Assembly (NCBI GenBank): GCA_002505935.1
Contig: DAWL01000147.1
Coordinates: forward strand, 6,393-39,107
Direction of reading: 5' to 3'
Length of the DNA: 32,715 nt
Source: Euryarchaeota archaeon UBA226
GTDB lineage: Archaea; Thermoplasmatota; Poseidoniia; Poseidoniales; Poseidoniaceae
The notes beneath the pieces are model-generated. The model was not told the DNA's origin and did no database searches. It worked only from the letters and a program-made list of their open reading frames with translations. How positions within the stretch are numbered: the stretch's first letter is position 1; the number at the start of each line of letters is the position of its first letter. Below are positions 1 through 22,349 of this stretch, piece by piece. Made by a program: the position numbers and the translations under genes.

Positions 1-3000
1 CTGGCTCAGATTCTGGTTCTGGAACAGCCTCTGGCATCGGTTCAGCCTCATTCTCTGCGGCCTGAACAACTTCTTCAGAACCAGATTGCATCTTGACGAT
101 ATACTTGACAAAGTGATTGAGAGTAGGATGTTCTGCTAAACTGAATGACTCATCTACTGGAAGTGAGAACCGCTCTCTGATGTCACCCATCATTTCCGCT
201 TGTTTCACAGTGTCAATTCCCAATTCACCCTCTAGATCCTGATCTAACTCGATGAAATCCTCAGGATAACCGGTATGTTCCACAACCACCTCTAGGACAA
301 CTGCTTCGATTTCGCTTCGATCCACCTCTACAGAAGCGGCACTCTTCGCGGGTTCTACCTGTTCCTCAGTTTCTGGTTCTGGCTCCTTTGCTGTTTCTGA
401 AACAGGTTCTTCCTCTACCTTGTCATCAATCCCTGATTCCACAGGAGCAGATGCCATACTGGAACCTGACATTTTGAGAATGTAATCGATCATGTGATTC
501 AAGGTAGGGTGCTCAGCGAGGATAAACGATTCATCTACTGGTAAAGAGAACTTTTCGCGAATATCTCCCATGATTTCGGCCTGCTTGACTGTATCAATGC
601 CCAATTCACCTTCCAGATCTTGATCTAATTCGATGAAATCTGCAGGGTATCCGGTGTGTTCCACTACAACCTCGACAACCGTAGTTGAAACCGAATCCTT
701 GTCAACACTCGAGACCGACTCTACTGTAGACGGTGGTGAATCTTCCTTAGGTACCGGTTCAGGCTCTGCTTCTACGGCAGGTTCCGGAACGGTTTCGGCT
801 TCTTTGCTCATATCTTCTCCAGGTTTCCAATCCTCGCCCTGTACGCCGCCATGTAGATTGTCTTCCCCATCAAGATATGCAACCAATTTACCATCCAAGA
901 CCTTCAATTGTAAGTTGTCTGTTCCTGCAAGTTTCTGATTCCATCGCATCAATCTATCCATGTCGATTCTATCGCCCTGAACTTCACATGAGCGCATGAA
1001 TGTGATTGCGACCTGGCTACCGAAACCTGCAGCAAATCGCAATCCATACCTCATATTTTCATGATATCCTCCCTTGCTCAGATTGAGATCTCCTAATTCA
1101 GGATCTACCTCCTTGTGATTTGCAATAGGAGGGGCGCGTCCGGTATGTAGGGCGTGAACCATCGAAGCATCTTCGATTCCCGCCCCCATAGGATGCCCTG
1201 TGAATCCCTTTGTATTGGAAATGACCAACGAATCGGTATCTTTGCCGAAGGTCTCTCGCAAGGCCCTTACTTCTGCTTGAGCAGAACCTCCTCTCGCTGG
1301 AGTGTAGGTCTCATGACTGTAGAAGAAAGTCTCAGATGCGATCTCCTTACGATTAACTCCCCATCTATCTTCCATCTGGGACACGAAACGATCAACCTCT
1401 GCAGCAACATGCTCAACATCCAATCTGGTCCCATGATAAGATGAATTGGCGATATGCGCTCCAAGCAATTCCGCATACGGCTGAACTCCCCTCTGTGTGG
1501 CTTCGCTCTTGCGCTCAATGACAAATGCGGCTGCGCCCATACCAAGAATCAGTCCATTTCTACGGGCATCGAAAGGAAGAGCCGCTTCCTCGATGACATT
1601 GCTTGTGGATGCGGCCCCACTGGCTGCGAAACCTGAACCAATCCACTCCCAAAGATCTGGGCCAGTGACGTTATCAGCGCTGATTATTACTACTCTATCA
1701 CAACGGCCAGTAGTCAACCAATCCTCGGCTAAAGTGAATGACGCTGCAGTAGAAGCACACGCTAAATTGATGGTGCTGTTAGGGCCTCTAATTCCCGTAT
1801 ATTGTGCGAATTGGGAATGTCCCATATTCAGTATCTGAAAAAGATATGACCTGTCGAAACGTCCCTCTTCATCAGACCCGTTGTGGGCACTATGTTTGAC
1901 GGTTTTAGCGGAACCGGGGAAACAACTGGAGAAGATAACCCCTGTGCGGTCGCGATATATCTGAGGTATCTGCCAATTAGTTATGAGACGCAAACCTCCC
2001 TTGCCAATCTTCTCCTCTGGAGTCAATGGTATTCCAGCATCGCGTAAAGCAATGAGTCCTGCTGCCACTGCTAATTGAGTAGAAGTATCCCAAGAACGGG
2101 CAATCTTTGCATCAACTCCGAATTCTTCGGTTATGTCGAAGTCTCCTGCCAAACCTGCTAGTTGTGGAATATCACCGAATTCCTCAGCAGCCTCCATCCT
2201 CGCTTGTCCATCTCTGCCTTTGATTAGGCGTACGATGTTCTTGTCGAGAATTTTCTGCTTGTAATCATCCGGCACTTCGCTGATACAAGTTTCTCCACGT
2301 ACTAATTTCTCGAAATTATCATCATCGAATACCTTGCCTTTACCTGGCAACCCAAGACTGACTCCAGTCACGACAAATGGGTCGTCTCTGCGACTCTGCA
2401 ACGGGTCTGTCGAGACTACTTTCTCAACGACCTTCTCTACCACCTTATGAACGACTTGTCCTTGCGGAGCAATCGCTTGGTTAGGAGAGGATTTAGGGCG
2501 CTTACTGGATGTAGCCGCACGGAAATTCTCCGGCACTCCTTCTACCCAATCGCATATTTGCGCAGCTGTCTTGATTTCAGAAGTATCAAAGTCAGCAGCA
2601 ACTCTACCTTGTTTCTCAAGGGAATTGAATACAGATTGAACTACTTCATCACTCAATCCTAAACCGCTGCGAAGATCTACATTTCCACGACACATAGTGG
2701 CGGGATATCCACTAACTCCAGCAAGAATACTTGCTATCCACTCAATCTCGAGTTCTAATTCATCCATTCCAGAATCCTCGGCAAGTACCTCCACATCTGT
2801 CGTGGCTACTGGTTGGGGGGCTTCTGGTACAACCTGTTCTACAGATTCAGGTAAAGCCACAGGCATTTCCTCAGTTTCTTCTTGCCAAGCCTCGATTGGC
2901 CCTGCTCTGAACCCTTCAGTAAGCAATGGAGAATCTGAACGCGGCCAGCGATATGGGCGTCCTGCAACCGCCATCTCGGCTAGAGCATTGAACAGAGACG

Positions 3001-5947
3001 GAATTCCACCAAACTTCGGATGGTTAGTCATCATTGAGATGTGAGGTCGCTTCTCTAGAATCTGTGAAGCAAACACAGTCAATGCACGCTTCGGACCTAC
3101 CTCAACAAATAGGCGAGCACCTGATGCATACATGGTCTCAATCTGTTTTGTCCATTCCACTGCACTAGCCATCTGCGGAGCCAATTTGTCCAAAACTTGC
3201 TGCTTTGCGGTTCTCTGAGAATCTCTACTCATCGGATAGAAGCCGCCATCCACATTCGAGGTTATTGGAATCTCAGGCAAATTGATTTCAAGTCCTTCAA
3301 GGAATCTTCGCAAAGGTTCCGCTGCCGGCTCAACAATAGTTGAGTGGAAAGCGTGGCTGGTCTGCAAGGTGACACAATTGATGTCTAGTCCCTCGAACCT
3401 TCGTATCGCTTCCTTGACTGAAGGAGTATCTCCAGCAATAACAGTCATCTTTGGTGAATTCTTGTTGGCTGCAATGACATACCCATCAATTGATGCTAGA
3501 ACGTCCTTAATCACATTGTAATCAGCGGTCACGGAAGCCATCAGCCCCTTGTCGAAGATCTCAACAGAACCCATCTCAGTTCCTCGAGCTGCTGCTGCTC
3601 GCAAAGCCCCGTCCATTCCAAGAATTCCTGAAACCATCAATGCGGCATATTCTCCCAAACTGTGTCCTGCCACCATGTCAGGTCTTCGTCCATGGTCTGC
3701 AAGAATCTGGTTGATTGCTAAATCGGCAGTCAACATAGCTGGTTGAGTATACTCTGTCTGCTTGAGTTTCTCTTCGGCTTCAGCGCGCTCTTCTTCATTC
3801 AATCCACTACGCAACACGAAACTGGAAAGAGTCTCTCCATCGAGAATATCCACCATGGTCTTGTCAGCCTGGTTCCAAACATTTGCCACACCAGAGAATC
3901 GCTTACTCAAATCCAACGTCATTCCAACGTATTGACTACCCTGACCAGGGAACATATGCGCAACCTTGGCATTGCTTGGCAATGGCGCCTCGTCGGTAAT
4001 CAGAATTCCTTGCGACTTGAGGAAACTCCACTTGTCCCTTCCTTCCATGGTCTTCAAAGCCAAAGCGCTGCGCTTGTCAAACTCAGCCCATGATGTAGCG
4101 ATTATCGCAATCCTACAGCCAACACAAGTGAAACCTTCGCTGGCAGCGGCTAATTCCTTGGATAACCGCCTTCCCAATGGATCTTCATCAAATGTTTTTC
4201 CAGATGAAAGCAATTGCTCTCTGGCTTGAGTCAATTCCTCCTTCAAACTCTCTACATCATCAGATTCAAGCAACAATATTCCGCCTTCAATCTCCTTGAG
4301 TTCCTCCCATGTCATACTGGGAGAGGCCTTGGCATCGAGGATACTTTCGGCACTTTCCTTAGCCACCTTGGCCTTGGCAACAATACCTCCGGCTGCTACT
4401 TTCTCTGCAACTACGGGAGTTGTAGATACGGGCTGCGGTCCAGCTAGGAAAGTAGCCCATCTACTCCTCCATTCGATCGCAATCTTGTGATGGAATCGCT
4501 TGTCAAACTCCTCCATAACTACGTGCCAATTGGTCCCCCCAAAACCGAAGGCAGAAACGGCAGCTCTACGCGGTCTATCCTTTGGACGTGGCCACTCTCT
4601 AGCATATGTTGGGACATAGAATGGAATGGAATCCCAATCTACGGTTGGATTCGGAGTTTGAAATCCTGCGCTGGGAGGAATAACTCCCTTGCTGACTGCA
4701 CTAATCGTTTTCAACATCCCAGCAATTCCAGCAGCCGCTTTGAGGTGTCCAATCTGGCTTTTGACAGAACCTACTGCAACATTGTCTCCCGCAGGTGATT
4801 CATGCCACAACTTGCGCAAAGTTCCCAACTCCATCGCATCCCCAACCTTTGTTGAGGTCCCATGAGCTTCGACAAGATCCACAGTTGCTGGACTGAAACC
4901 TGCCTGTGCATATGCTCTAGCCAAGGCTTGCATCTGTCCTCTTTGACTAGGCGCGGTTATCCCCTTTCCTCTACCGTCGCTGCTAGCTCCGATTCCCCTG
5001 ATGACTGCATGGATATCATTTCCATCTTCGATGGCATCATCTAGACGTTTGAGGACCAATACTCCTGCACCTTCACCCATTACGAATCCATCTGCGCGGG
5101 CATCAAAAGGAGTGGAATGTGTAGGTGAAAGAGCACCGATAGCACTGAACTTAGCATAAGTTGCAGGATCCATAGTGCGATCGCTGGCACCAGCCAACAT
5201 CAGATCGACCTGACGAGCCTGTAGCATTCTGCAGGCATCAAGAACCGCAGACATTGTTGAGGCACAAGCAGCATCGGTAGAATGGTTAGGCCCCTGAAGA
5301 TCTAGCAAGTTAGCAACTCTGCCAGCCATAACATTGGCGAGTTCACCAGGCATAGCATCCTCATCAATCTCCGGTTTGCCTTCACTGATAGCCTGCTTCA
5401 GAGCATCCCTGCCGGACTCAGGCATTCCTCCCGCCTCAACTGCCTGACGAGTGAACTGATCTGCCCATACTCGATGGTTGGAGAGATTCCTGAATTCTCC
5501 TCCAAGAGCATTTGCCATGACAACTCCTGTGGATGCATTTGGAATCGAAAAGCGCGAGTCATCTCCAAGATAGCCGGCATGCTCCAAAGCTGCTGCTGAT
5601 GCAGTTACTGCCCATTGTTGACAAATGTCAATCTGCCCAAGAGTTCCAGGGGGCACCTTCCAGCGACGCCAATCGAAATCATATCCCTCAACGAATGCCC
5701 CAATCTTGGCGTAAGTTTTGGCATACTCCACTTGACCGGGCGAACCAGGGGCCCAGAAATCATCGATACTCCATCGATTAGATGGCACCTCCTTGATTGA
5801 AACATGTGCATTAACGATATTATTCCAGAATTTGGCGATATCTTCAGCATCGGGCATGATACAGCCCATACCTACGACTGCAATCGGTTCAAAGGGACCT
5901 TGTGCAGTTCCTTCTAATTCAGCAATACTGATTTCTTTAGCAGACAT
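1..5947 (-). CDS. Type I PKS/FAS-like megasynthase, C-terminus cut by the window edge (at least 1982 aa). Domain order: KS, AT, degenerate carrier-like, KS, two or more tandem carrier domains
   Basis: The ORF is absent from the supplied track because it runs off the left edge. Hand translation of the minus strand from ATG 5947..5945 (MSAKEISIAELEGTAQGPFEPIAVVGMGCIMPDA...) met no stop down to base 1. Motif anchors all fall in one frame. KS1: DAACAS, Cys codon 228 (5264-5266), EAHGTSTKVGD, SVKSQIGHLKAAAG. AT: FPGQGSQ, GHSLGEY (codons 761-767, 3647-3667), SHAFHS. KS2: INLACAST, Cys codon 1397 (1757-1759), SHETYTP, NTKGFTGHPMG. Carrier motif LEGELGIDTVKQAE occurs twice (codons about 1786 and 1913). 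An SD-like GAGGGG overlaps the fabI stop 6 nt upstream of the ATG. Confidence 0.85.
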   Translation of the reverse strand, partial: MSAKEISIAELEGTAQGPFEPIAVVGMGCIMPDAEDIAKFWNNIVNAHVSIKEVPSNRWSIDDFWAPGSPGQVEYAKTYAKIGAFVEGYDFDWRRWKVPPGTLGQIDICQQWAVTASAAALEHAGYLGDDSRFSIPNASTGVVMANALGGEFRNLSNHRVWADQFTRQAVEAGGMPESGRDALKQAISEGKPEIDEDAMPGELANVMAGRVANLLDLQGPNHSTDAACASTMSAVLDACRMLQARQVDLMLAGASDRTMDPATYAKFSAIGALSPTHSTPFDARADGFVMGEGAGVLVLKRLDDAIEDGNDIHAVIRGIGASSDGRGKGITAPSQRGQMQALARAYAQAGFSPATVDLVEAHGTSTKVGDAMELGTLRKLWHESPAGDNVAVGSVKSQIGHLKAAAGIAGMLKTISAVSKGVIPPSAGFQTPNPTVDWDSIPFYVPTYAREWPRPKDRPRRAAVSAFGFGGTNWHVVMEEFDKRFHHKIAIEWRSRWATFLAGPQPVSTTPVVAEKVAAGGIVAKAKVAKESAESILDAKASPSMTWEELKEIEGGILLLESDDVESLKEELTQAREQLLSSGKTFDEDPLGRRLSKELAAASEGFTCVGCRIAIIATSWAEFDKRSALALKTMEGRDKWSFLKSQGILITDEAPLPSNAKVAHMFPGQGSQYVGMTLDLSKRFSGVANVWNQADKTMVDILDGETLSSFVLRSGLNEEERAEAEEKLKQTEYTQPAMLTADLAINQILADHGRRPDMVAGHSLGEYAALMVSGILGMDGALRAAAARGTEMGSVEIFDKGLMASVTADYNVIKDVLASIDGYVIAANKNSPKMTVIAGDTPSVKEAIRRFEGLDINCVTLQTSHAFHSTIVEPAAEPLRRFLEGLEINLPEIPITSNVDGGFYPMSRDSQRTAKQQVLDKLAPQMASAVEWTKQIETMYASGARLFVEVGPKRALTVFASQILEKRPHISMMTNHPKFGGIPSLFNALAEMAVAGRPYRWPRSDSPLLTEGFRAGPIEAWQEETEEMPVALPESVEQVVPEAPQPVATTDVEVLAEDSGMDELELEIEWIASILAGVSGYPATMCRGNVDLRSGLGLSDEVVQSVFNSLEKQGRVAADFDTSEIKTAAQICDWVEGVPENFRAATSSKRPKSSPNQAIAPQGQVVHKVVEKVVEKVVSTDPLQSRRDDPFVVTGVSLGLPGKGKVFDDDNFEKLVRGETCISEVPDDYKQKILDKNIVRLIKGRDGQARMEAAEEFGDIPQLAGLAGDFDITEEFGVDAKIARSWDTSTQLAVAAGLIALRDAGIPLTPEEKIGKGGLRLITNWQIPQIYRDRTGVIFSSCFPGSAKTVKHSAHNGSDEEGRFDRSYLFQILNMGHSQFAQYTGIRGPNSTINLACASTAASFTLAEDWLTTGRCDRVVIISADNVTGPDLWEWIGSGFAASGAASTSNVIEEAALPFDARRNGLILGMGAAAFVIERKSEATQRGVQPYAELLGAHIANSSYHGTRLDVEHVAAEVDRFVSQMEDRWGVNRKEIASETFFYSHETYTPARGGSAQAEVRALRETFGKDTDSLVISNTKGFTGHPMGAGIEDASMVHALHTGRAPPIANHKEVDPELGDLNLSKGGYHENMRYGLRFAAGFGSQVAITFMRSCEVQGDRIDMDRLMRWNQKLAGTDNLQLKVLDGKLVAYLDGEDNLHGGVQGEDWKPGEDMSKEAETVPEPAVEAEPEPVPKEDSPPSTVESVSSVDKDSVSTTVVEVVVEHTGYPADFIELDQDLEGELGIDTVKQAEIMGDIREKFSLPVDESFILAEHPTLNHMIDYILKMSGSSMASAPVESGIDDKVEEEPVSETAKEPEPETEEQVEPAKSAASVEVDRSEIEAVVLEVVVEHTGYPEDFIELDQDLEGELGIDTVKQAEMMGDIRERFSLPVDESFSLAEHPTLNHFVKYIVKMQSGSEEVVQAAENEAEPMPEAVPEPESEP
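95..697 (-). repeat. Tandem duplication of carrier (ACP-like) domains, period 381 nt (127 codons)
   Basis: Copy 1 is about 476..697 and copy 2 about 95..316. Both encode VVEHTGYP(A/E)DFIELDQDLEGELGIDTVKQAE(I/M)MGDIRE(K/R)FSLPVDESF.LAEHPTLNH. They are separated by Glu/Pro/Ala-rich linkers. More copies may lie beyond base 1. Confidence 0.8.
990..2383 (-). other. Ketosynthase domain 2 of the megasynthase (approximate borders)
   Basis: DPFVVTGVSLGLPG start, INLACASTAASF active-site Cys, FDARRNGLILGMGAAAFVIE, YSHETYTPARGG and SNTKGFTGHPMGAG. The active-site Cys is retained, so this is not a CLF-type domain. Confidence 0.75.
2543..2764 (-). other. Degenerate carrier-protein-like segment between AT and KS2
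   Basis: The sequence DELELEIEWIASILAGVSGYPATMCRGNVDLRSGLGLSDEVVQSVFNSLEKQ has the helix pattern of a PP-binding domain. Its motif reads GLGLSDEV instead of DLGxDS, so the Asp-Ser dipeptide is transposed or lost. Confidence 0.4.
3053..3970 (-). other. Acyltransferase (malonyl-CoA:ACP transacylase-like) domain (approximate borders)
   Basis: AHMFPGQGSQYVGM, MVAGHSLGEYAALM and TSHAFHST motifs appear in the expected order and spacing. Confidence 0.8.
4583..5899 (-). other. Ketosynthase domain 1 of the megasynthase (approximate borders)
   Basis: The Cys-His-His triad motifs DAACAS / EAHGTST / GHLKAAAG are present, and the domain ends with FGFGGTNWHVVMEE. Confidence 0.8.
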
Positions 5948-5956
5948 GTTGACCCC

Positions 5957-6746
5957 TCACATTATGCTCTCCGGCACCATGGTAGCAGAATATCCAGCAT
6001 CGACATGAATAACCTGCCCAGTAACTCCTGCAGAAAGATCTGAGGCCAACCATGCGGCACAACCTGCTACATCCTCCTGCGTTACGTTGCGACGTAGTGG
6101 TGAATTTGCTTCGACATGATCCAGTATCCGGTCAAATCCTGGAATCCCTCCCGCCGCGATAGTTTTGATTGGCCCACTGGAAATTGCATTGACGCGATGC
6201 CCCTCAGGGCCTAGATGACACGCCAACTCTCTAGTCCAACACTCTAGACCTGCCTTGGCAATACTCATGATTCCATAAGAAGGCACAAAGCGCGTGCTAG
6301 CAGCATAGGTCAAGGTTATCGTAGATGAAGAATTATTCAGATAGGGCAAAGCGTGCCTTAGGCAGCGTTGTAGGCTGTGTGCTGAGACAGTCATTGCGGT
6401 ATCAAGGGCAGAACCCTCAACGAACAATACTGGACGATCAAAACATTCCCTAGGAGCAAATCCGATGGCATGAACAAGAATATCTGCTTTGAGCCCGGGG
6501 TTCTCTTGGCTGAAAGAAGAGAAGAATTCAGCCGTGGTTTCATCAGATGCAACATCTAGAGGGTAGAATCCAGCAATTGCATCCAACTCATCCTTCAATT
6601 TGAAAACGCGGCTCATGAATCTCTTTTGGTAACCTAGATAGAGAGATACTCCTGCTTCGGCTAATCGCTTGCAGATACCCCACGCGATACTCTCTTCGCT
6701 TGCCACACCAAATACGAAAGCAACCTTTCCTTGTAATCCCAGCATG
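5957..6746 (-). CDS. fabI: Enoyl-[acyl-carrier-protein] reductase, FabI-type SDR
   Basis: The N-terminus MLGLQGKVAFVFGVASEESIAWGI matches the FabI pattern M..L.GK..LV.GVA...SIA.GI, and the length and Rossmann layout are typical. The track start is a GTG at 6751, but the ATG at 6746 gives the canonical N-terminus and sits 5 nt after an AGGTG. The stop lies 9 nt upstream of the megasynthase ATG. Confidence 0.85.
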
Positions 6747-6750
6747 TTCA

Positions 6751-6771
6751 CACCTACCCTATGGGTAGGTG
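6751..6771 (-). promoter_or_regulatory. Perfect 9-bp inverted repeat (CACCTACCC ata GGGTAGGTG) whose 3' arm contains the fabI SD
   Basis: Read directly from the sequence. On the minus strand the order is hairpin, then TGAAC, then ATG (6746..6744). It could act as an RNA hairpin that sequesters AGGUG, or as a palindromic operator. Confidence 0.45.
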
Positions 6772-8779: not shown

Positions 8780-9328
8780 TCAATCCTCGCTCGAACCATC
8801 GAGGAAGAGACCGTCAGATTCGAACTTATCGCGCCAGTGCACCGCAGCCATTGCCACTAGATTGGCGTGTCTAGCATCTGTACTGATGGCCTTACCGTTA
8901 GCCCATACTAGAAGTTCCAAATCATGTCGTTGATCATCGATTCGCAAACAATTCAATCTAGTATCCATCTTAGCCTCTTTAGCATAAATTGGGACCCTTT
9001 CAATTTCCAATCTTCTACCTAAATCAAAGGAGGCAATAACTGGTCCTTTCTCCGAAGTCAATCCTTCATCGCTTTCACCAATACGCAGCAAGAACTCTCT
9101 CGCTGCTGCGCGAGCCGCCTGAGGTTGAATAGTCCCATGAACAACAATTCTTCCATCCTTGTCGATTAGAATGGTGGCCCTAGGCCTTTGCAAAGCATGG
9201 ATGACATAATCACCACTACGGGTTGCACCTAGTTCTTTTACTGCTTTCTCAGGGTCGAAAGGTGTTGCAGGAGTAAAACGAATCAACTGATTTTCTACCT
9301 GAACCATCGGTGCTTCAGAACTCGCCAT
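8780..9328 (-). CDS. Divergent two-repeat TBP-fold (TATA-binding-protein-like) protein
   Basis: Hand alignment to archaeal and yeast TBP gives two repeats. Repeat 1 is VQVENQLIRF...DYVIHALQRPRATILIDKDGRIVVHGT. Repeat 2 is PVIASFDLGRRLEIERV...LELLVWANGKAISTD. These compare with IENIVAS.DL...LIFSSGKxVxTGA in each TBP repeat. The preferred ATG at 9328 lies 2 nt after the upstream stop. Confidence 0.5.
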   Translation of the reverse strand: MASSEAPMVQVENQLIRFTPATPFDPEKAVKELGATRSGDYVIHALQRPRATILIDKDGRIVVHGTIQPQAARAAAREFLLRIGESDEGLTSEKGPVIASFDLGRRLEIERVPIYAKEAKMDTRLNCLRIDDQRHDLELLVWANGKAISTDARHANLVAMAAVHWRDKFESDGLFLDGSSED

Positions 9329-9330
9329 AT

Positions 9331-10128
9331 TCACTCCTCCTCCCCGTCCGAGGAGCCACATACCTTTGCGATTTCCGGCTCGATTCCTGCATCGAGGATA
9401 GCCAACAACTCTCCGACCCTCACCTGAGGAGAAGGTACCAACAATGTAGCATCTGCACCAAGTTCAGTTCGCAAGTCAGCCATTGCCCCCCTCAATCTCG
9501 CGCATATCCTGCGGTCTCGACTCATCCTCAACTCGGGAGATAGGCTCTCTTCCAATAGCCACCACCAAGCGGCTGCTAAGGCCGAAGCAGCCTGTAATTC
9601 AACTGGACCTGAAGGAGGTGGAGAAGACAATGCCCTTGCTTGCTTCAACAATTTGCCGAACCTTCTGCCCTGTCGTGGAATTTTCAGCAGGGTCCTCCAT
9701 CTGGTCAAATAGTCTGCTTCCTCGCCCAGATGTTCGACCCAAGCCTCATCGTCGAGTGGTGGTTCAAGATTGTACACGTTGCGTCCATGTTTCCTTGCTA
9801 ATCTAAGCAGACGCCATGGTTCAGGATCAGGAAATCTACCTCCAGATACCTCTTCAAGCAGCATCAAGCGTTCGAGGTACAATCGCGTTGCTCCACCCCC
9901 CAACATCGCTTCTGTTAGATTGATCCCCGCACTTTCTTTCTCGGACTTGTCCTCAAATTCCCAAACTTCGAGATCATCTTCTCCAGCAACCAATGCCAAT
10001 CCATCCCATTGCATCCTAGGACGCATTGCCTGTGGATGAACCACAGTAGGTAGGACCCCATGCAGAATTATCCGACCGCCGTCAGGATCCTCCCAAAGAT
10101 GGTCCTCCCATTCGAGGAGTCGGCTCAT
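9331..10128 (-). CDS. Hypothetical protein, 265 aa, with a weak TraB/GumN-like C-terminal pattern
   Basis: The long ORF starts at an ATG 5 nt after the stop of the giant gene. SRDRRICARLRGAM...LLVPSPQVRVGELL loosely resembles the ERDxxMAxxL...VVGxGHxxG region of the TraB family. The functional call is low confidence. Confidence 0.55.
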   Translation of the reverse strand: MSRLLEWEDHLWEDPDGGRIILHGVLPTVVHPQAMRPRMQWDGLALVAGEDDLEVWEFEDKSEKESAGINLTEAMLGGGATRLYLERLMLLEEVSGGRFPDPEPWRLLRLARKHGRNVYNLEPPLDDEAWVEHLGEEADYLTRWRTLLKIPRQGRRFGKLLKQARALSSPPPSGPVELQAASALAAAWWWLLEESLSPELRMSRDRRICARLRGAMADLRTELGADATLLVPSPQVRVGELLAILDAGIEPEIAKVCGSSDGEEE

Positions 10129-10133
10129 TCACA

Positions 10134-13100
10134 TCATCCCTGTTGGCGGACCCAATCACGCAGTTGCTCCACTGACCAGCCCATGTCGAAGTATCCCTGA
10201 ATGGTTTGTTGGTCCCACTGTGGGAATTCAGCCAAGGCTTGTTGCATCTCTGCAGATACCTCAGTTCCATAACTTCCGTATCCACCACCAGCATGGTCGT
10301 AACCACCTCCGCCATAAGCTCCTTCAGCACCTCCACCATATCCTTGCTGAGCCTCGTATGGCAATGTTGGGTATGATTTTTCATCCTCATATTCGTACTC
10401 GTCATCGTATTCACCTTCGCTACGACCTCGCAGCACCAATACTACAACAACGATGATGAGAATACCAATCAAAGCACCTAATGCTGCTAGAATCATTCCG
10501 ATTGGCAAAGAGTCATCGGTTTGAGTTGCTAGACTAATGTCGTAAGTCTGGCCAGCATTAATACTCGTATAGATCAATTCACCAGTCAAATTATTGGTTA
10601 TCTCAAAGTGAAGATCCGCCTTTGCTTCTCTGAAAGGCTCAATCGACACCTCCATATTGTGAGAATTTGAACCAAGAGTCCCATCGAATACGCCAATCAT
10701 TGGTGTTGAAACGATAGCCACGGTTGCCCGAGCGCCATCGCTTGCTGAGACTACCTCTATCTTCATCTCAAGAATTCCTTCGGTGTTTCCATCATTACGT
10801 ACGGTAATGTCAAGTTGAACGTCTTCACCTACCTCGGGAGCATTCGGGAACATCTTGAATTGGGTCACCTCAAATTCTGCTTGCTCGTATACCACTTCAT
10901 ATTCGCTGGTCCATTGATCCTGTGTCCCACGAATCGGATTTTCGGAATCGCCTCCTCCAGACAAACCTAGACCTGCAGTATCCCTGCCGGTCACCCAGAA
11001 TCTCAATATGACGTTCTGCAATTGTGCCCTACTAGGAAGTTCATGGCCATCTGGCCATAGATCGATACATTCGGCGCTTTCAGCGATTATCTGGTCACCG
11101 CCACCTACGAGACTGAGATTCTTCGATAATGCACCGCCATAATTACTCTCGGCGAAACTCCAATTCTCGCCATTCTGGAAATACATCCAGTTGACATAGA
11201 TAGACTGTGGCGATAGGCGCTCTGTCTCCTTAATCATCAACTGAACATCAACGCAATGTATCGATGATGATGGCATGATTCCATCTGAAAGAGTTGCGCC
11301 CTTAGTGTCAGTCACTTGCCATGTATTGGCTAATACCTCTGGAGCGCTACTGTCAACTTTGATTCTGAAGACTTGTGAAGTGGTAGTGTGGTCAACTGCT
11401 CCCTCAGGCAATGAAGAGGCCTGAACTTGGAATATATATCTGAAATCATTCGTTTTGCTAGGGGCGGTCAGATTGATTGAGAAAGTTCCTCCGTCAAATG
11501 GATGGTAGGTTGTCTCACCCAAAAGTTGCTCATTACCACTGGAATCCGCTGATGCATCTTCTCTAGTAATTACCATGACCATTGGTATTTCTGGAGTGAC
11601 AACATGGTCTGGATATCCATCCTTGAATGCATATTGACCCGAGAATTGTACAGTATCTCCTGAATAGACATAATCCATACTTGAGCCACTGCCGAAATCA
11701 TATACGGACTCGGTGATGAACGGACCCGTCATATCCGTCAATTGCAAAGAAGTAGTATCCAAGAGGAATCCATCTCCATAAATCCACCTCTGCTTGTACC
11801 TACCTCCAGATTCGGTCAATACCGAAGAAGGATTATTGGGATCCAAATCCTTGACACGAACTTGAGGTGTCATTACAGAAGTTGCAGTAGGAATTGCCCA
11901 CTGTAAGCGAATCGGCATATCGAGCATGAATTCTGTCTCGAATGGATCAATCAATGCCTGCCCATTTCTACGAAGCATCTGAGTACCGTCGCTTTCGTTA
12001 GATGCTTCAATAATCTCAATCCACTGACTATCTGTAATAGCGGTATTATTTCTCGGATAATACTTGAGGACCATATCTCCGGGCACACCTGGGTTCAAAT
12101 CTATCTCATAAGACTGGATATCTCTCCAACCATTGTCATCTCTTCCCTCTACTATGAGATGATACTCATTACCTGCATACATCGTCTTAGTAGTGGTGTC
12201 AAATTCATTTCCTGCAGAATCACGAATCTTGAAACTCTCAATACCTGGATTGCGACTTCCCATGCCGACATAAGATACCAAATCATGATCCAGTCCGGGT
12301 GAACCGGCCATGATCAGATTGCCCGCTAGATCATTACCGGAGACGTAGAGGCTGACCCGACCATCATAACCATCATTGGCAATATCATTGATACTTCCAT
12401 AATAATAGGAGATAGGAGCGCCACCGTCACCTGTCATCTCCAACTGACGATACTCACTCTCCTGTGGGATTCCGTCACCGTCATCGTGGTCTTGCTGAAC
12501 CCAATAGTTGAGCATCAACTTCTCAGGAGGCTCTGGGATATCTTGTGCAGAGAAATTGAACCATTGAGTTTGAGATGGCTCTACCCACGTATCGTCATAC
12601 AAAGGCCTCCAATAACCACCAGAATGGCTGGGTGATGCTGAACCATCCCACACCATTGTTTCGACAAGAGATGGTGAATATGTGTCAATCGTCAGCTGGA
12701 ACTCAACTTCGCAATCTGGACCTGGGAAATATTCCGCAGGTGGACACAAAGTATCGCCACCAGAATATTCAGACATTCGGAAACGATAATTCTCTGTTCC
12801 TGCAGCGTCTTCACCAAGATCAACCTGCCAATCGAAGTCTCCACTGTTTGGTCCGGAAGCGTTACTGATTTCAAGCCAAGAATAAGTTATGTTCGAGGGG
12901 TCGGTATTGTTGATGATTAGTCGCTCCAAAAGAATACGATATGCTGAGGGATCCGGTGCTGCATCCAACCCTTCCAACCTGATACTTCCAACCAGACGTA
13001 ACATCTGATTGGAACGGGCATCTGACAAGGTCTGTGATTCACCTGCACTATTCTGAACGTCAAAAGCAGTTATTCCAGCATCGTTCTCAATTGCATTACC

Positions 13101-15953
13101 TTCACTCGGCACCAAGGCAATCGCTCCGGGAAGTCCCTCTACTCCATTATCTGCAATTAGAGTAGCAAACAAACGCGCTTCTGGAGAATCCTCCCATGAC
13201 GGATTGATAGTAAACCTCCAAGTTATCTTCTTGGCTCCAAGAAGATCTTCAGCAGTAGACGATTGCAAAGTTATCAGATTCTCGCTATCATCTACTTCCC
13301 AGAAATCCATCAGGTCTGAGTAACCCAACTCGATGGAACCGCTCGTAGATTCGATTCTCAGACGAGCCTCTTGGAATGATGCACCGGTAGAAGAATCGAT
13401 ATTGTGCATACTGACTGCTTCGATTATTCTGCCATCTGGGTAAAGCCCTTCAGGAGAATCCGTCAAAGTAAGTGTGCTGTCGTAACCATTCGCTGAAGTT
13501 ACTGATAGATCAAACAACGACAAGGCGCCACCCGAAGTTGCGTGCATCTTGAACGGTACATCTACGAACCCTCCTACTTCAGTTCCTAGAGCGATACCCT
13601 GAGATAACTCGCGTACCAAATCATGAGTACTACCGAGTTCTGTGTTCCAATCGTACAGAATAATCAGATTCTGCATCCTCATACTTGCTCCAGTTGAAGC
13701 ATTAGGACTCTGAGCCTTGAAGTGGAAAGATAGCCATTCATTTCCATATTGATCAACATGGCTTGTAGGCACCATTGGATTGTTCATCAATGAGTTCAGC
13801 GCACCTTTGAAGTCGACATCAGGAGTATTGAAACCACCGCTGGACCAAGTGCTAACGTTCTGCCATTCACCTAAGGTCACATTCTGTGAACCGGACAAGA
13901 TATCCATGACGAATCCCTCTTCGGGGTTATTGTTTGAGTAAATTGTATTCTGGTCCAGTGCAACTTCTGCGGCGAGGATATTTGCACCTCTAGGCAACAT
14001 GAATGTTCCACCTTGGCCAACTCCCGATGGACCCAAAGTTACCATGCTACTATCCTTGGCCAAATTGATTTCACCAACCTTCGTATCCCAGAAAACGTTC
14101 TGCTTACCGAAATGGCCGAAGGCAGGCTCTGCAAAACCCCACTCGTAATCTCCATCTCCTGCGATGTCTAGAAGGACACTTCTGGGACTGAATCCGAATT
14201 GTAAGTCAAACCACAAACCAGTGACTGAACACGGAACTGAATATGAGACATGAGTGACGAAACTGAATAACGGTTCATCAGGTGTCCACATTTGATTGGG
14301 AGTTACCGAAACAGGAGCTGATTCTCCAATTTCCATTTCAATACTTGGATCATCAGTACAATCATCTGTGATGATTGGTTTAATTCCAGTTATCGGCTGA
14401 TTGAAACTGCTTTTTAAGGCAGGAGGTGATATCGAATTATCAGTCAAAGTAGGGAAAAACATCAGCATCTCGCCCATGACACCACTTGTTGACCACTGCC
14501 CTTGCTCTGCGGGTGGACTTGCTATCAGCATACGGGTATCATTGAATCCGCTTCCGACTCTACTGCCCAGATGGATAGCGTGTAAAGTTGGAGTGGAAAG
14601 ACGATAGGTTCCACTATCAAAGTTGAACCTAAGTTGAATCTGCGGATATTGTGAAGCATTGATACCCCACAACTCGATGGTATTGCCCTCTAATCCGGAA
14701 AGGACTTGGCCTGAATTGTCAACAACCACATCAGTTCCTTGAGCATTCAATATGTCTACACTCAAACTATTGGTAGAAGTGGTTTCAGATTCCAATTGCA
14801 AGAAGCCGTATCCATCTGGGAAACCATGCTGACCCATTGCCAATGATGCGGAGAAACCTTCGACGACAACGCTTCCTGATTGTGGCAGCAAATCTCCCAA
14901 CCTGAAGTCATCGATATACCAACCTGGAAGGAAAGAGTCGGCCGGATTCTTTCCAAGATTCTCATTTCTCTCGAGTACGAAACGTAGCCGGATGTATTTG
15001 TTCATATGTTCTCTAAGGTCTAATGCCAAAGTTCCCCATCCGTTGGGATTCAACTGAGAGTGGACTGAAGTGCCTCCCAATGCATAACTTCCTGTTGCTA
15101 CCCCATCACAATATGTAATCTTGTTATGCCCATTACCGACAGGGTACAAACCATTGCTGTAGCTGATTCCACTACTATTGGCAACATCAAAATCAATAGT
15201 TTGCCATGCGTTAGCCCAATCCATTCCGTTGGAAGAGATATCATATTGAACATATGCGCAATCATACATGTTATTCACCGGATTACTTGAGGTGCCGGAA
15301 TTATTGTAAAACAATGAATGGTAAGATGAAAACTTAGCTATGTAACCAGTCGGGCTAACCCACATGCTTGGGCTATACAATTCAAACTCGAACGGACTGC
15401 CGGGTTGACCATCGTCGGGATAGTACGAATCAAACGGATTAGTACCCCAACATGACTCTCCACTATTGCAACTCAAGTTGATGACATCCTGATTTGTCAT
15501 TATCGCATGATCAAAACTACTCATTGCAGGAGGAATGGCACTGGAATGGAAGCCAGCATCAGTATTCTCAAAATCTGTTGTGAAACCATCACTGATCAAA
15601 CTTAGATACTTCTCGGTGTAGGTGAAATCATCCTTATTGCTGTAGGAAGTTCTTTGATTGTTGTAAGAAGGGTCCCAAATATCCGCATTGTTACTCGCAT
15701 CAAAGGTAATCACTTGACTATGGTTAGCCATTGCTGTACCAACTTTCACCGATGCACTGGTCACTGTACCTCCATCCGGTAGAGCTACGTTTCCATCCAC
15801 TACATTCGTATAAGTCAAAGGCTCCTTGACCTCAATAACAACTTCTTCTGAACCATTTCCGAAGGTCGTAGTTGTAGTCGCTGAAGATAAACTACAGAAT
15901 AACATTAGGAACACGAATAGCAATGCAGGAATACTCTTTCTTTCATTCTTCAT
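10134..15953 (-). CDS. Giant (1939 aa) secreted surface protein with a C-terminal TM anchor and a Gly/Tyr- and acid-rich cytoplasmic tail
   Basis: Signal-like N-terminus (IPALLFVFLMLFCSLSSA), followed by about 1800 aa rich in Ser/Thr/Asn/Asp/Gly and aromatic residues. A CARDB-like segment (PNAPEVGEDVQLDITVRNDGNTEG) lies near the C-terminus. The TM segment is LPIGMILAALGALIGILIIVVVVLVL. The tail reads RGRSEGEYDDEYEYEDE...GYGGGAEGAYGGGGYDHAGGGYGSYG. GAGGTGA sits 5 nt upstream of the ATG. Confidence 0.85.
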   Translation of the reverse strand: MKNERKSIPALLFVFLMLFCSLSSATTTTTFGNGSEEVVIEVKEPLTYTNVVDGNVALPDGGTVTSASVKVGTAMANHSQVITFDASNNADIWDPSYNNQRTSYSNKDDFTYTEKYLSLISDGFTTDFENTDAGFHSSAIPPAMSSFDHAIMTNQDVINLSCNSGESCWGTNPFDSYYPDDGQPGSPFEFELYSPSMWVSPTGYIAKFSSYHSLFYNNSGTSSNPVNNMYDCAYVQYDISSNGMDWANAWQTIDFDVANSSGISYSNGLYPVGNGHNKITYCDGVATGSYALGGTSVHSQLNPNGWGTLALDLREHMNKYIRLRFVLERNENLGKNPADSFLPGWYIDDFRLGDLLPQSGSVVVEGFSASLAMGQHGFPDGYGFLQLESETTSTNSLSVDILNAQGTDVVVDNSGQVLSGLEGNTIELWGINASQYPQIQLRFNFDSGTYRLSTPTLHAIHLGSRVGSGFNDTRMLIASPPAEQGQWSTSGVMGEMLMFFPTLTDNSISPPALKSSFNQPITGIKPIITDDCTDDPSIEMEIGESAPVSVTPNQMWTPDEPLFSFVTHVSYSVPCSVTGLWFDLQFGFSPRSVLLDIAGDGDYEWGFAEPAFGHFGKQNVFWDTKVGEINLAKDSSMVTLGPSGVGQGGTFMLPRGANILAAEVALDQNTIYSNNNPEEGFVMDILSGSQNVTLGEWQNVSTWSSGGFNTPDVDFKGALNSLMNNPMVPTSHVDQYGNEWLSFHFKAQSPNASTGASMRMQNLIILYDWNTELGSTHDLVRELSQGIALGTEVGGFVDVPFKMHATSGGALSLFDLSVTSANGYDSTLTLTDSPEGLYPDGRIIEAVSMHNIDSSTGASFQEARLRIESTSGSIELGYSDLMDFWEVDDSENLITLQSSTAEDLLGAKKITWRFTINPSWEDSPEARLFATLIADNGVEGLPGAIALVPSEGNAIENDAGITAFDVQNSAGESQTLSDARSNQMLRLVGSIRLEGLDAAPDPSAYRILLERLIINNTDPSNITYSWLEISNASGPNSGDFDWQVDLGEDAAGTENYRFRMSEYSGGDTLCPPAEYFPGPDCEVEFQLTIDTYSPSLVETMVWDGSASPSHSGGYWRPLYDDTWVEPSQTQWFNFSAQDIPEPPEKLMLNYWVQQDHDDGDGIPQESEYRQLEMTGDGGAPISYYYGSINDIANDGYDGRVSLYVSGNDLAGNLIMAGSPGLDHDLVSYVGMGSRNPGIESFKIRDSAGNEFDTTTKTMYAGNEYHLIVEGRDDNGWRDIQSYEIDLNPGVPGDMVLKYYPRNNTAITDSQWIEIIEASNESDGTQMLRRNGQALIDPFETEFMLDMPIRLQWAIPTATSVMTPQVRVKDLDPNNPSSVLTESGGRYKQRWIYGDGFLLDTTSLQLTDMTGPFITESVYDFGSGSSMDYVYSGDTVQFSGQYAFKDGYPDHVVTPEIPMVMVITREDASADSSGNEQLLGETTYHPFDGGTFSINLTAPSKTNDFRYIFQVQASSLPEGAVDHTTTSQVFRIKVDSSAPEVLANTWQVTDTKGATLSDGIMPSSSIHCVDVQLMIKETERLSPQSIYVNWMYFQNGENWSFAESNYGGALSKNLSLVGGGDQIIAESAECIDLWPDGHELPSRAQLQNVILRFWVTGRDTAGLGLSGGGDSENPIRGTQDQWTSEYEVVYEQAEFEVTQFKMFPNAPEVGEDVQLDITVRNDGNTEGILEMKIEVVSASDGARATVAIVSTPMIGVFDGTLGSNSHNMEVSIEPFREAKADLHFEITNNLTGELIYTSINAGQTYDISLATQTDDSLPIGMILAALGALIGILIIVVVVLVLRGRSEGEYDDEYEYEDEKSYPTLPYEAQQGYGGGAEGAYGGGGYDHAGGGYGSYGTEVSAEMQQALAEFPQWDQQTIQGYFDMGWSVEQLRDWVRQQG

Positions 15954-16045: not shown

Positions 16046-16711
16046 TCAGAAAAGATGCACCGTTCTCCTCTCAGACCAACATCCTTCAGCAGCCTTAACA
16101 AGGCCACCTACTAAGGTCTCATTTCGTAGCAATCTGTCCATATCTGCGATCGTGGTTGGATGCTTTGGCCCCAATGCATCGCACTCCTCTGGACCGACAC
16201 TGATTTCGTAAGTTCCAAGCGCCCTAGCCATAGCGATGACTTCCTGCTTATCTAGGCCGAGTAATGGGCGCAATACTGGTAATGGTGACGCCACTTCAAC
16301 AGCACCCATATTTCCTAGAGTTTGAGAAGAAACCTGGCCTAGATTTTCACCACTCAAGACATGGCTGGCTCCAACTTCTAGAGCGCATAGGTGAGCAAGT
16401 TTTTGGTAAAGCCTCTTCATATGTACGAAATAGTCGCGGTGGGCATCTCCTTCAGTGAAAGCAGCGAGTACTTCAGCGACTGGAACGACCTGCAATTCAT
16501 TGGAGATTCCTTCAGGGAATTTTTGCGCAAGATATTGTAAAGACTTCACTGTCTTTTCTTCAGCCTCTGGGCCTGTTACAGGCTCCTGAGATGCGTGAAC
16601 CGCGTGTATAGTCCAACCATCTGCTAGCATTCTAGCTACTGCAACTGGTGAATCGATACCTCCCGAAACAAGCGCCACGGCACTTTTCGCAGGGCTAGCA
16701 TTACCTTGCAC
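16046..16711 (-). CDS. ThiI-like PP-loop ATP pyrophosphatase domain protein (221 aa; no THUMP domain)
   Basis: ALVSGGIDSPVAVARML is the SGGxDS PP-loop in its ThiI-type form (SGGIDSPVA). The protein is too short to contain the N-terminal ferredoxin-like/THUMP module. The start appears to be GTG. Confidence 0.7.
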   Translation of the reverse strand: MQGNASPAKSAVALVSGGIDSPVAVARMLADGWTIHAVHASQEPVTGPEAEEKTVKSLQYLAQKFPEGISNELQVVPVAEVLAAFTEGDAHRDYFVHMKRLYQKLAHLCALEVGASHVLSGENLGQVSSQTLGNMGAVEVASPLPVLRPLLGLDKQEVIAMARALGTYEISVGPEECDALGPKHPTTIADMDRLLRNETLVGGLVKAAEGCWSERRTVHLF

Positions 16712-16759
16712 GGGCTTCCGACAAGGAACGCCTTGAAAGCATTAGGCCGCCCCGCAGGT

Positions 16760-20943: not shown

Positions 20944-22284
20944 TCACCCGAGTAAATCTTCATGCATCTCGATATACTGAATTGTAATGTCTCTCGAAAG
21001 GAAATCCTTCTCATCCATTATCCTTCGATGCAATGGCACTAGGTTGTCAACCCCTACAAGAATAGTTTCATCCAATGCTGAACGCATACGTGCTATGGCC
21101 TCTTCTCTAGTATGTCCCCAAGTCAACAACTTCGCCAACAAACTGTCGAAACACCCCGGCATGTCATAACCGATATGGGCGTGCGTATCCACCCTGATTC
21201 CATAACCCGCAGGAAAGTGACAATCCCAAAGACGACCAGGTGAAGGGATGAATTGTCTAGGGTCTTCAGCGTTTAGCCTACATTGAATAGCGTGTCCCTT
21301 CCAAACAATTTCCTCCTGAGATAGAGGTAAGTTTCCTCCTTCAGCAATTCTGATTCCCATTTGAACAAGATTGTGTCCAGTGATCAATTCGGTTACCGTA
21401 TGTTCGACCTGAACTCTTGGATTGACTTCAAGGAAATAGAATTCTCCATGAGCATCGCGCAAGAACTCGAATGTTGCTAAGCCTTTGTAACCCACCGCCT
21501 CTGCACCACGACAAACTAAATCTCCAATCTCGGACCTCTTTTCATCGCTTAGCCAAGGGCCTTCCTCGACCAACTTCTGGTGTCGCCTTTGGATACTGCA
21601 GAACCTCTCTCCAAAATGAATCGCATCTTTTCCATCCCCGAGTACTTGGAACTCAACATGCTGAGCACCTTCGATGTATTTCTCCACGAATACGCGTTCA
21701 TCACCAAAGGCACTGCGAGCCCTTGACTGGCAGAGATTCAATGCTGATTCGAATTGGTCTGCTGAAGTCACAATCTGCATACCAATCCCCCCTCCACCAG
21801 CTGCAGCCTTGATAATCACAGGATATCCTATTTCATCGGCCAATGTGCTGGCTACTTCTGCATCTGAAACTGGTTCACTACTTCCTTTGGCAACTGGTAA
21901 GCCAGCCGCCTCCATCGCTGCTCTAGCCTCTATCTTATCTCCTAGTAGAGTAATGACGTCTGCTGAGGGGCCGATGAATGTGATTCCTTCTTCCTCAAGC
22001 CGACGAACAAAGTTTGCATTCTCAGCGAGGAACCCATAACCAGGGTGAACCGCATCTGCTGAGACAGTCTTCGCTGCCTCGACCACCGCCTCCACATCGA
22101 GATAGGAGTCCAACGGGTTATCTCGATAAATCGGCACAGCAACATCTGAAAGACGAACCGGTAGAGAAAGGCGATCCTCACGACCATGAATTATTGCGAC
22201 CTCAATCTCCATTTCACGGAGTGCTCTGAGTATCCTCAGAGCGATTTCACCACGGTTGGCGATAAGTACCCTCTTGAAACTCAT
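20944..22284 (-). CDS. accC: Biotin carboxylase (ATP-grasp; acetyl/acyl-CoA carboxylase or pyruvate carboxylase A subunit type)
   Basis: MSFKRVLIANRGEIALRILRALREMEIEVAIIH, YPVIIKAAAGGGGIGM, EVNPRVQVEHTVTE and similar motifs. The preferred ATG at 22284 gives the canonical N-terminus; the track start at 22320 adds 12 aa. Confidence 0.9.
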   Translation of the reverse strand: MSFKRVLIANRGEIALRILRALREMEIEVAIIHGREDRLSLPVRLSDVAVPIYRDNPLDSYLDVEAVVEAAKTVSADAVHPGYGFLAENANFVRRLEEEGITFIGPSADVITLLGDKIEARAAMEAAGLPVAKGSSEPVSDAEVASTLADEIGYPVIIKAAAGGGGIGMQIVTSADQFESALNLCQSRARSAFGDERVFVEKYIEGAQHVEFQVLGDGKDAIHFGERFCSIQRRHQKLVEEGPWLSDEKRSEIGDLVCRGAEAVGYKGLATFEFLRDAHGEFYFLEVNPRVQVEHTVTELITGHNLVQMGIRIAEGGNLPLSQEEIVWKGHAIQCRLNAEDPRQFIPSPGRLWDCHFPAGYGIRVDTHAHIGYDMPGCFDSLLAKLLTWGHTREEAIARMRSALDETILVGVDNLVPLHRRIMDEKDFLSRDITIQYIEMHEDLLG

Positions 22285-22349
22285 TACAACACTCGAGAAG
22301 TAGACGGCTGATGAACACAACGGTTGTCAATTTACACCACAACAATTGC

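Follow-up and report, generated by a model that had tools for sequence, protein, structure and literature searches.

The 32,715-nucleotide stretch of DNA analysed here (hereafter the window; contig DAWL01000147.1 of assembly GCA_002505935.1, positions 6,393 to 39,107 of the forward strand) comes from Euryarchaeota archaeon UBA226, a member of the Poseidoniales, and its left end carries on the minus strand the gene of a very large multidomain enzyme, to which we refer as the megasynthase, preceded by a gene of the FabI family. Our findings suggest that both genes probably form part of an iterative, fully reducing, carrier-dependent fatty acid synthase (FAS) of type I that is native to Marine Group II (MGII, Poseidoniales) and encoded by an operon of fabI, the megasynthase gene and a phosphopantetheinyl transferase (PPTase) gene; the window holds the front two-thirds of the megasynthase. 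The original prediction, made from the letters of this DNA alone, had envisaged a carrier-dependent assembly line of type I for lipids or polyketides, genuinely archaeal, coupled to FabI and of non-textbook layout. That proposal holds on the grounds of composition, synteny and the curated family models, none of whose cut-offs is reached, and its 'unknown product' can be sharpened to what appears to be a complete, fully reducing synthase, while caution on the product stays appropriate. The parts of this synthase are familiar; its archaeal host, its ketosynthase-acyltransferase-ketosynthase (KS-AT-KS) layout and its threonine carriers are each surprising.

The megasynthase frame starts at an ATG (5947-5945, minus strand) and stays open for 1982 codons (2..5947) until it is cut by the left edge of the window. 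As judged from the open frame, the Pfam and NCBIfam domains and the full-length homologues, this N-terminal part contains, in order, a first ketosynthase (KS1), an AT, a degenerate acyl carrier protein (ACP), a second ketosynthase (KS2) and two further ACPs; in Pfam itself, the pair ketoacyl-synt/Ketoacyl-synt_C is matched twice, Acyl_transf_1 at aa 665-965, and PP-binding in two stretches. The succession of KS, AT, degenerate carrier-like domain, Cys-containing KS and at least two carriers noticed at the outset thus agrees with Pfam, hhalign and AlphaFold2. KS1 (aa 20-484; 4496..5890, minus strand), matched by ketoacyl-synt, Ketoacyl-synt_C and KAsynt_C_assoc, is of the polyketide synthase (PKS)/PfaA type, its closest PDB matches being type I PKS KS-AT didomains, and its catalytic Cys in DAACAST and His residues in AHGTST and KSQIGH are kept in 120/120 homologues. 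The AT (aa 665-965; 3053..3955, minus strand; Acyl_transf_1 6.9e-34, NCBIfam FabD 2.6e-55) displays the motifs GQGSQ, GHSLGE and HAFH, invariant across the 120 homologues, and HAFH is known from PKS as the signature of malonyl-type ATs. KS2, the second Pfam KS stretch (aa ~1190-1662; 962..2380, minus strand), is a divergent FabF-like ketosynthase and constitutes the signature domain of the megasynthase family. Its triad is formed by Cys1397 (NLACAST), a His in SHETYTPARGGSA and a His in NTKGFTGH, and alignment with FabF structures (best PDB match 2gqd, 7e-27) indicated that both His residues (the first in SHETYTP, which replaces HGTGT) are retained along with the Cys and the Lys, so that KS2 should be regarded as a ketosynthase and not as a chain-length factor (CLF). 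A CLF role was considered and rejected, since KS2 has the complete Cys-His-His triad, which stays invariant even when distant relatives are included.

The segment between AT and KS2 (aa 1065-1139; 2531..2755, minus strand) aligned with the profile of the tandem ACPs over 62 columns (hhalign E 2.3e-5), and its AlphaFold2 model (pLDDT 89.8) retrieved with Foldseek only ACPs among the top 50 PDB matches (TM 0.65-0.84), which identifies it as a decayed ACP. It reads GLGLSD against ELGIDT in the carriers, and since the attachment position is occupied by Asp it is presumably no functional carrier. Among the homologues this position is Asp or Glu while the neighbouring Ser varies; hence the possibility of a real carrier using the nearby Ser (SD/SE/AD/DD/TD/ND) was discarded. 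An intact ACP occupies the same place in some distant relatives.

The two tandem carriers of the window, reported earlier as such and recovered here as two PP-binding stretches (1.5e-18) of the four-helix carrier fold, bear a peculiarity that had escaped the original prediction. Carrier 1 (aa 1756-1823; 479..682, minus strand; motif LEGELGIDTVKQAEIMG) and carrier 2 (aa ~1883-1950, NCBIfam ACP 1877-1954; 98..301, minus strand; motif LEGELGIDTVKQAEMMG) both read LEGELGIDTVKQAE(I/M)MG, and in place of the Ser that defines the attachment site of PP-binding (PF00550) they have Thr1786 (codon 590-592) and Thr1913 (codon 209-211), which align under the phosphopantetheine Ser of GIDS/VDS in the PigH doublet and Streptomyces ACP structures. 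The 120 Poseidoniales homologues contain Thr at this site in 373/373 tandem carriers, with the whole motif LGIDTVKQAEIM strictly conserved in every copy and the copy number kept at 3-4. In the wider family, 139 cluster representatives (50% identity) with full KS2 comprised 116 Thr-only, 5 Ser-only and 1 mixed protein. The nearest relatives of each Ser-type representative are Thr-type, indicating that Ser and Thr have been exchanged several times, and in Candidatus Heimdallarchaeum endolithica and aukensis, whose genomes are closed, one protein combines Ser, Thr and Ser in three adjacent carriers alongside a fused PPTase. The simplest reading of this pattern is that the carrier Thr serves as a working attachment site. 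Ser is, to our knowledge, essentially invariant at the attachment site of known carriers, and we know of no described case of phosphopantetheinyl-threonine; a literature search on the carrier motif strings and on Thr-for-Ser replacement retrieved nothing. As for the repeated carriers themselves, an assembly break caused by identical ACP repeats found no support, the copies being only 71-77% identical in DNA and sharing no exact run longer than 14 nt.

Directly upstream of the megasynthase, the FabI-family enoyl-ACP reductase frame (5957..6751, minus strand; Pfam adh_short_C2 5e-69) opens at GTG 6751, its true start being probably ATG 6745, which would give the 262 aa of the gene called in the homologous locus L001. 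It contains the Y-x6-K catalytic motif (YGIMSIAK), and its top 13 NCBIfam matches are all FabI models, the best with 221.6 bits against a cut-off of 391. By direct reading, a spacer of 9 nt (5948..5956, minus strand) separates the FabI TGA (5959-5957) from the start codon of the megasynthase, and a Shine-Dalgarno-like GAGGGG run overlaps this TGA. This arrangement, which had been given correctly together with the long frame in the original prediction, suggests that both genes are co-transcribed and translationally coupled. What lies beyond the left edge can be taken from P0001, a full-length homologue of 3134 aa that is 97% identical over the part in the window and whose domain order is KS1-AT-degenerate ACP-KS2-ACP3-KR-DH, its C-terminus adding a third carrier, a ketoreductase (KR; Rossmann GGGSGVT, YAAAN) and a PKS-type dehydratase (DH; HSIDGVPYHP). 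A domain search of P0001 detected no thioesterase (TE), no CLF and no FabA-type DH. In L001 the megasynthase is followed, with an overlap at its stop, by the PPTase gene (19402-20169), just outside the window. This gene encodes 255 aa of the Pfam ACPS superfamily with the Sfp-type motifs WVGIDAEPED and WTSKEAVQKA, in keeping with the GxD..E and WxxKE(A/S)xxK signatures and the length of about 230-260 aa of Sfp-type enzymes; its similarity to HetI/PptT is weak (E about 8e-4), and a sequence search of PDB chains gave no match. The C-terminus and neighbours whose recovery had been recommended can thus be read from the homologous locus, a TE not being among them. With KS, AT, ACP, KR and DH in one chain, as is characteristic of type I FAS, an enoyl reductase (ER) provided by the adjacent FabI and a PPTase besides, the three genes appear to supply the complete activity set of a fully reducing iterative ACP-dependent synthase. 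In the subclade nearest to the window, two ~45-aa repeats (WRWSDNV...HDDGNRYLKREE) are inserted between carriers and KR (L001 about 16350-16650, P0001 aa 2118-2215); P0002 has the same repeats, yet a single carrier.

Full-length homologues numbering more than 120, of 2850-3130 aa and with identities of 59-97%, were retrieved in a protein search; they lie on contigs of up to 1.16 Mb and are named by NCBI as Poseidoniales, Poseidoniaceae or Poseidonia proteins from metagenome-assembled genomes (MAGs). Two scans of species-representative genomes, in which a few contigs were fetched twice, provided more than 100 loci, which came from MAGs of the families Poseidoniaceae (MGIIa) and Thalassarchaeaceae (MGIIb), from two single-cell genomes and from one 1.53-Mb contig. 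The order in Poseidoniales loci, as followed by tblastn, is a 265-aa protein, a TBP-like protein, TatD, a choice-of-anchor-T protein, FabI, megasynthase and PPTase. FabI is found directly upstream, within 150 nt of KS1, in all 86 Poseidoniales-like loci with enough flank to be informative (86/86), and the PPTase directly downstream in 67/67. Gene order is identical on a 3.0-Mb contig carrying the more distant homologue P0123, and its conservation across all these loci indicates that the fabI-megasynthase-PPTase operon is ancestral to the Poseidoniales.

The family extends well beyond this order. An exhaustive HMMER search with KS2 collected 552 clusters (50% identity, E<=1e-30), mostly of proteins of 2000-4000 aa with KS2 in an internal position, and domain mapping defined a family core of (ER)-KS1-AT-KS2-ACPn-KR-DH-(PPTase). 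Named archaeal members belong to Asgard archaea, Heimdallarchaeota (Heimdallarchaeia) and other Thermoplasmatota, and bacterial ones to Myxococcota, Bradymonadaceae, delta-proteobacterial, Acidobacteriota, Actinomycetota and Calditrichota MAGs, under generic annotations such as 'beta-ketoacyl synthase N-terminal-like domain-containing protein' or 'SDR family oxidoreductase'. In an Asgard MAG (JAYEJY010000120.1; locus L120, 182-10960) a single chain unites an NMO-type ER, KS, AT, KS, two ACPs, KR, DH and PPTase, and the closed genomes of Ca. Heimdallarchaeum endolithica and aukensis encode the corresponding one-chain ER(NMO)-KS-AT-KS-ACPn-KR-DH-PPTase proteins (P0294/P0291). This one-chain form would represent an ACP-dependent fatty acid synthase that is complete and activates itself. 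A gene for acetyl-CoA carboxylase (ACC) lies immediately 3' of the megasynthase in many bacterial loci and in one Thermoplasmatota locus, as in L113 (15496-21138), L121 (22845-28670) and L123 (19165-22188), and likewise in L107, L109, L114, L116, L118 and L119. Some of these ACCs are single eukaryote-like chains of 1880-1941 aa with biotin carboxylase, biotin carboxyl carrier protein, carboxyltransferase and ACC_central domains, and BioY or a biotin ligase accompanies ACC in some loci. An acyl-CoA-dehydrogenase (ACAD)-like gene precedes the megasynthase immediately in L113 (1184-6860), L119 (5208-6887) and L121 (2143-5827); these loci, without FabI and without a fused ER, also hold genes for electron transfer flavoprotein (ETF) alpha/beta and Fe-S/CCG or FixC-type oxidoreductases, and may therefore possess a third, flavin/ETF-dependent type of enoyl reductase. 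Both the recurrent coupling to malonyl-CoA supply and the interchangeable reductases favour a fatty acid synthase over a secondary-metabolite enzyme.

On these grounds we propose the following scheme. The Sfp-type PPTase would convert the three tandem carriers to their holo forms, phosphopantetheine being attached to the conserved Thr, and the malonyl-type AT would load malonyl units from malonyl-CoA, a use to which the ACC genes directly downstream in many relatives are well suited and which lends support to fatty acid synthesis. PKS-type KS1 and FabF-like KS2 would share priming and elongation, probably split by chain length, since such a division has been reported for the two KS of polyunsaturated fatty acid (PUFA) synthases. 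The C-terminal KR and PKS-type DH would then yield the enoyl thioester, which the separate FabI would reduce in trans. A saturated acyl chain is the expected product, as neither an isomerising DH of the FabA type nor a CLF is present. Release would proceed without a TE domain, through an acyltransferase (the PlsC homologues being an example), through a discrete thioesterase or through transfer by the AT. The supplement of Rinke 2019 places plsC in most Poseidoniales genera. In the window, a YciA-like acyl-CoA thioesterase of the 4HBT hot-dog type is encoded about 10 kb from the operon (16706-17230, plus strand), overlapping an antisense 165-aa ORF, and is a candidate for chain release. Likewise, an AccC-like biotin carboxylase (20944..22320, minus strand; 553 bits with the NCBIfam model of the ACC biotin carboxylase subunit, cut-off 597) may contribute malonyl-CoA.

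Several points weigh against a fatty acid synthase of this kind. FabI remains below the NCBIfam equivalog cut-offs, no TE is contained in P0001 and no release enzyme was found for the synthase, and our literature search found no biochemical datum on any member of the family. The curated family that matches the megasynthase best is PfaA, a PUFA enzyme and not one of saturated fatty acids, and it is PUFA synthases that typically have tandem ACPs. The S36T variant of Escherichia coli ACP reportedly remains apo, unmodified by AcpS, so that modification of Thr would require an unusually tolerant PPTase. Finally, the Poseidoniales encode the isoprenoid ether-lipid pathway, and fatty acids therefore need not be their bulk membrane constituents.

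The likeness to PfaA raises the possibility of a PUFA-synthase-like 'secondary lipid' or polyketide synthase, which would make a specialised compound, for instance a lipid that is polyunsaturated, hydroxylated or of very long chain, or else a precursor of hydrocarbons, instead of ordinary saturated fatty acids, which we regard as rather unlikely. PfaA (TIGR02813) is the best-scoring curated family, with 640.1 bits for the window fragment, 856.9 for P0001 and 969.1 for the Heimdall relative P0294; its cut-off is 1010.1, and none of the curated family models reaches cut-off for the megasynthase. Both enzymes have an N-terminal PKS-type KS-AT and tandem ACPs with (E/D)LGID-x-(I/V)K, or LGID(S/T)xK, followed by KR and a PKS-type DH, and both are iterative, lack a TE and rely on an enoyl reductase in trans. 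The bacterial hosts of family members (Acidobacteriota, Actinomycetota) presumably own a type II FAS, which would make the megasynthase an accessory system there. On the other hand, a degenerate ACP and an intact FabF-like KS2 are inserted between AT and ACPs, interrupting the contiguous KS-MAT-ACPn-KR-DH order of PfaA. The PfaA carrier motif is LGIDSIKRVEIL, with a phosphopantetheinylated Ser; the megasynthase carriers have Thr, and its host is archaeal. Across more than 100 Poseidoniales loci, the 10 kb around the megasynthase contain no PfaB, PfaC (KS-CLF-FabA-type DH2) or PfaD, P0001 being flanked instead by FabI upstream and the PPTase downstream, and FabA-type DH and CLF domains are missing from the system. 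The ER partner is of the FabI type, replaced by a fused NMO-type domain in some relatives and possibly by ACAD/ETF in others. Moreover, relatives are coupled to ACC and biotin genes, and the operon is universal and syntenic in the Poseidoniales, as expected for a core gene set. We therefore retain a fatty acid synthase as the preferred assignment.

Other known systems share some of these traits. Enediyne PKSE enzymes (SgcE/CalE8) are built as KS-AT-ACP-KR-DH-PPTase and resemble the megasynthase in being iterative, PfaA-related and equipped with their own C-terminal PPTase; many megasynthase relatives do end in DH-PPTase. PKSE proteins have, however, one KS, one ACP, no known ER partner, a conjugated polyene product and dedicated accessory genes, as opposed to two KS, three tandem ACPs, a separate PPTase and housekeeping neighbours here. 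The HglE-type heterocyst glycolipid synthases (antiSMASH class 'hglE-KS') use a PfaA-like KS-AT-ACPn for a membrane or envelope lipid and not for an antibiotic, but they differ in being cyanobacterial, in partners such as HglC/D, in their Ser carriers and in having no known internal second KS. Bacterial type II FAS (FabD, FabF, FabG, FabZ, FabI, AcpP, AcpS) performs the same chemistry with homologous catalytic folds, FabF being nearest to KS2 and the ER being in both cases a discrete protein of the FabI family with Y-x6-K, whereas the Poseidoniales system fuses everything except the ER into a ~3000-aa protein, with a PKS-type DH in place of FabZ and with tandem Thr carriers. In archaea, an ACP-independent fatty acid synthase complex of thiolase, DUF35 protein, KR, DH and enoyl-CoA reductase has been described, together with the statement that archaea lack FAS I, FAS II, ACP and ACP synthase (Schmerling et al. 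2024 preprint, 10.1101/2024.07.05.601840). The proposed outcome, de novo fatty acids in an archaeon, is the same, but the machinery is unrelated, being CoA-based and non-decarboxylative, while the megasynthase is predicted to depend on ACP and malonyl units.

A second alternative holds that Thr carriers cannot be phosphopantetheinylated and act as structural or docking elements, the substrates being bound to CoA or otherwise, or the enzyme being crippled. The near-invariance of Ser in known carriers and the reported behaviour of the S36T variant speak for this possibility, as does a PPTase so divergent that it shows only weak HetI/PptT similarity and no PDB sequence match. Nevertheless, we consider it improbable: strict maintenance of the motif through all 373 copies and of 3-4 carriers per protein, a PPTase that is always adjacent or fused, and repeated Ser/Thr interchange, even inside one protein, all speak against it, and the truly degenerate ACP of the same protein gives a picture of decay, since its site is Asp or Glu and its motif varies. 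Less probable still is a synthase devoted to a short acyl-ACP, such as octanoyl for lipoate or a biotin precursor, in a role similar to that of mitochondrial FAS and not in membrane lipids. MGII are aerobic heterotrophs needing lipoylated complexes, and a BPL_LplA_LipB-family gene and BioY adjoin one bacterial relative; but this neighbour, beside a complete ACC and a biotin transporter, is more simply explained as a biotin ligase, no lipoate genes occur in the Poseidoniales neighbourhood, and a ~3000-aa enzyme with 3-4 tandem carriers, an arrangement linked to high flux in PUFA synthases, would be a heavy investment for a cofactor.

The left end of the window does not stand out in composition. 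The tetranucleotide distance between bases 1-6000 and the rest is 0.0126, within the 0.0096-0.0143 of other 6-kb windows, and in third-position GC content (GC3) the megasynthase, at 0.42, does not differ from the archaeal genes around it, so that the compositional break against which the original prediction had warned was not encountered; the archaeal surroundings that it described were found as well, in the form of Orc1/Cdc6, PPAT+DUF359 and a TBP-like protein. Chimerism or contamination was consequently rejected on composition and conserved synteny: that the left 6.8 kb are bacterial DNA mis-joined or mis-binned with an archaeal contig has almost no probability, for although the domain families are bacterial-like and public databases assign two near-identical contigs to Yoonia and Salinimicrobium MAGs, composition and GC3 match and the same junction, to the genes of TatD, the TBP-like protein and the 1939-aa protein, recurs in independent assemblies, single-cell genomes and contigs of 0.5-1.5 Mb. 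Of the two public contigs, CAXRJJ010000057.1 ('Yoonia sp.', L002) has the full Poseidoniales gene order and a KS2 99% identical to that of the window, and CAXRAI010000082.1 ('Salinimicrobium sp.', L070) has a KS2 70% identical to it; given this gene order or KS2 identity, both were probably mis-binned into bacterial MAGs.

Openly accessible full-text literature, including the main MGII and Asgard genomics papers and targeted reading of Rinke 2019, Tully 2019, Deschamps 2014, Eme 2023 and Coleman 2019, yielded no description of the megasynthase, and with all curated models below cut-off, the possibility that this architecture was an already characterised or named family did not materialise. MGII are the most abundant archaea of the surface ocean. 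Large genome surveys of this group treat fatty acid degradation, a glycerol-3-phosphate (G3P) backbone and plsC only, the last of which 'hints' at a bacterial-like pathway. Field measurements of ether lipid per planktonic Thermoplasmatota cell are ~1000-fold below Thaumarchaeota reports, which raises the question of what MGII membranes consist of. The fabI-megasynthase-PPTase operon would supply the missing synthase and thus bears on both this composition and the lipid divide. A bolder version of our proposal, possible but advanced only tentatively, is that the carriers are phosphopantetheinylated on Thr, that the enzyme makes the main acyl chains of MGII and that these are built into fatty-acid glycerolipids on G3P, perhaps also in those Heimdallarchaeia that encode the fused version. 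Were this true, MGII and possibly Heimdallarchaeia would belong, as regards the lipid divide, to its 'bacterial' side. Asgard/Heimdall archaea are the closest archaeal relatives of eukaryotes, and the occurrence of the family in closed Heimdallarchaeum genomes is relevant to the question of how fatty-acid membranes could have arisen in the archaeal ancestor of eukaryotes by acquisition. Furthermore, the near-universal carrier Thr points to an ability of PPTases and carriers to work with threonine, and the KS-AT-KS layout with its interchangeable ER (FabI in trans, fused NMO, possibly ACAD/ETF) would represent an undescribed FAS design.

Some other features of the window deserve mention. Two weak, chance-level repeats were all that a search for repeats of a replication origin upstream of orc1/cdc6 detected. 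A 1939-aa ORF (10134-15953, minus strand) matches no Pfam or NCBIfam model except a weak glycine-rich one; its counterparts in L001 and in L122, the latter 1890 aa long, keep the same position near the operon, and it may encode a surface protein. A 193-aa protein (8780-9361, minus strand) shows weak, partial similarity to TBP (Pfam 1.6e-7 over 40 residues) and may be a divergent TBP paralogue, given its ~50% identity and identical position in MGIIa and MGIIb. Finally, a fused CTP_transf_like (PPAT) and DUF359 protein is encoded at 27941-28948 (minus strand); DUF359 we take to be the archaeal dephospho-CoA kinase, so that the fusion presumably covers the last two steps in the synthesis of CoA, the phosphopantetheine donor for carriers.

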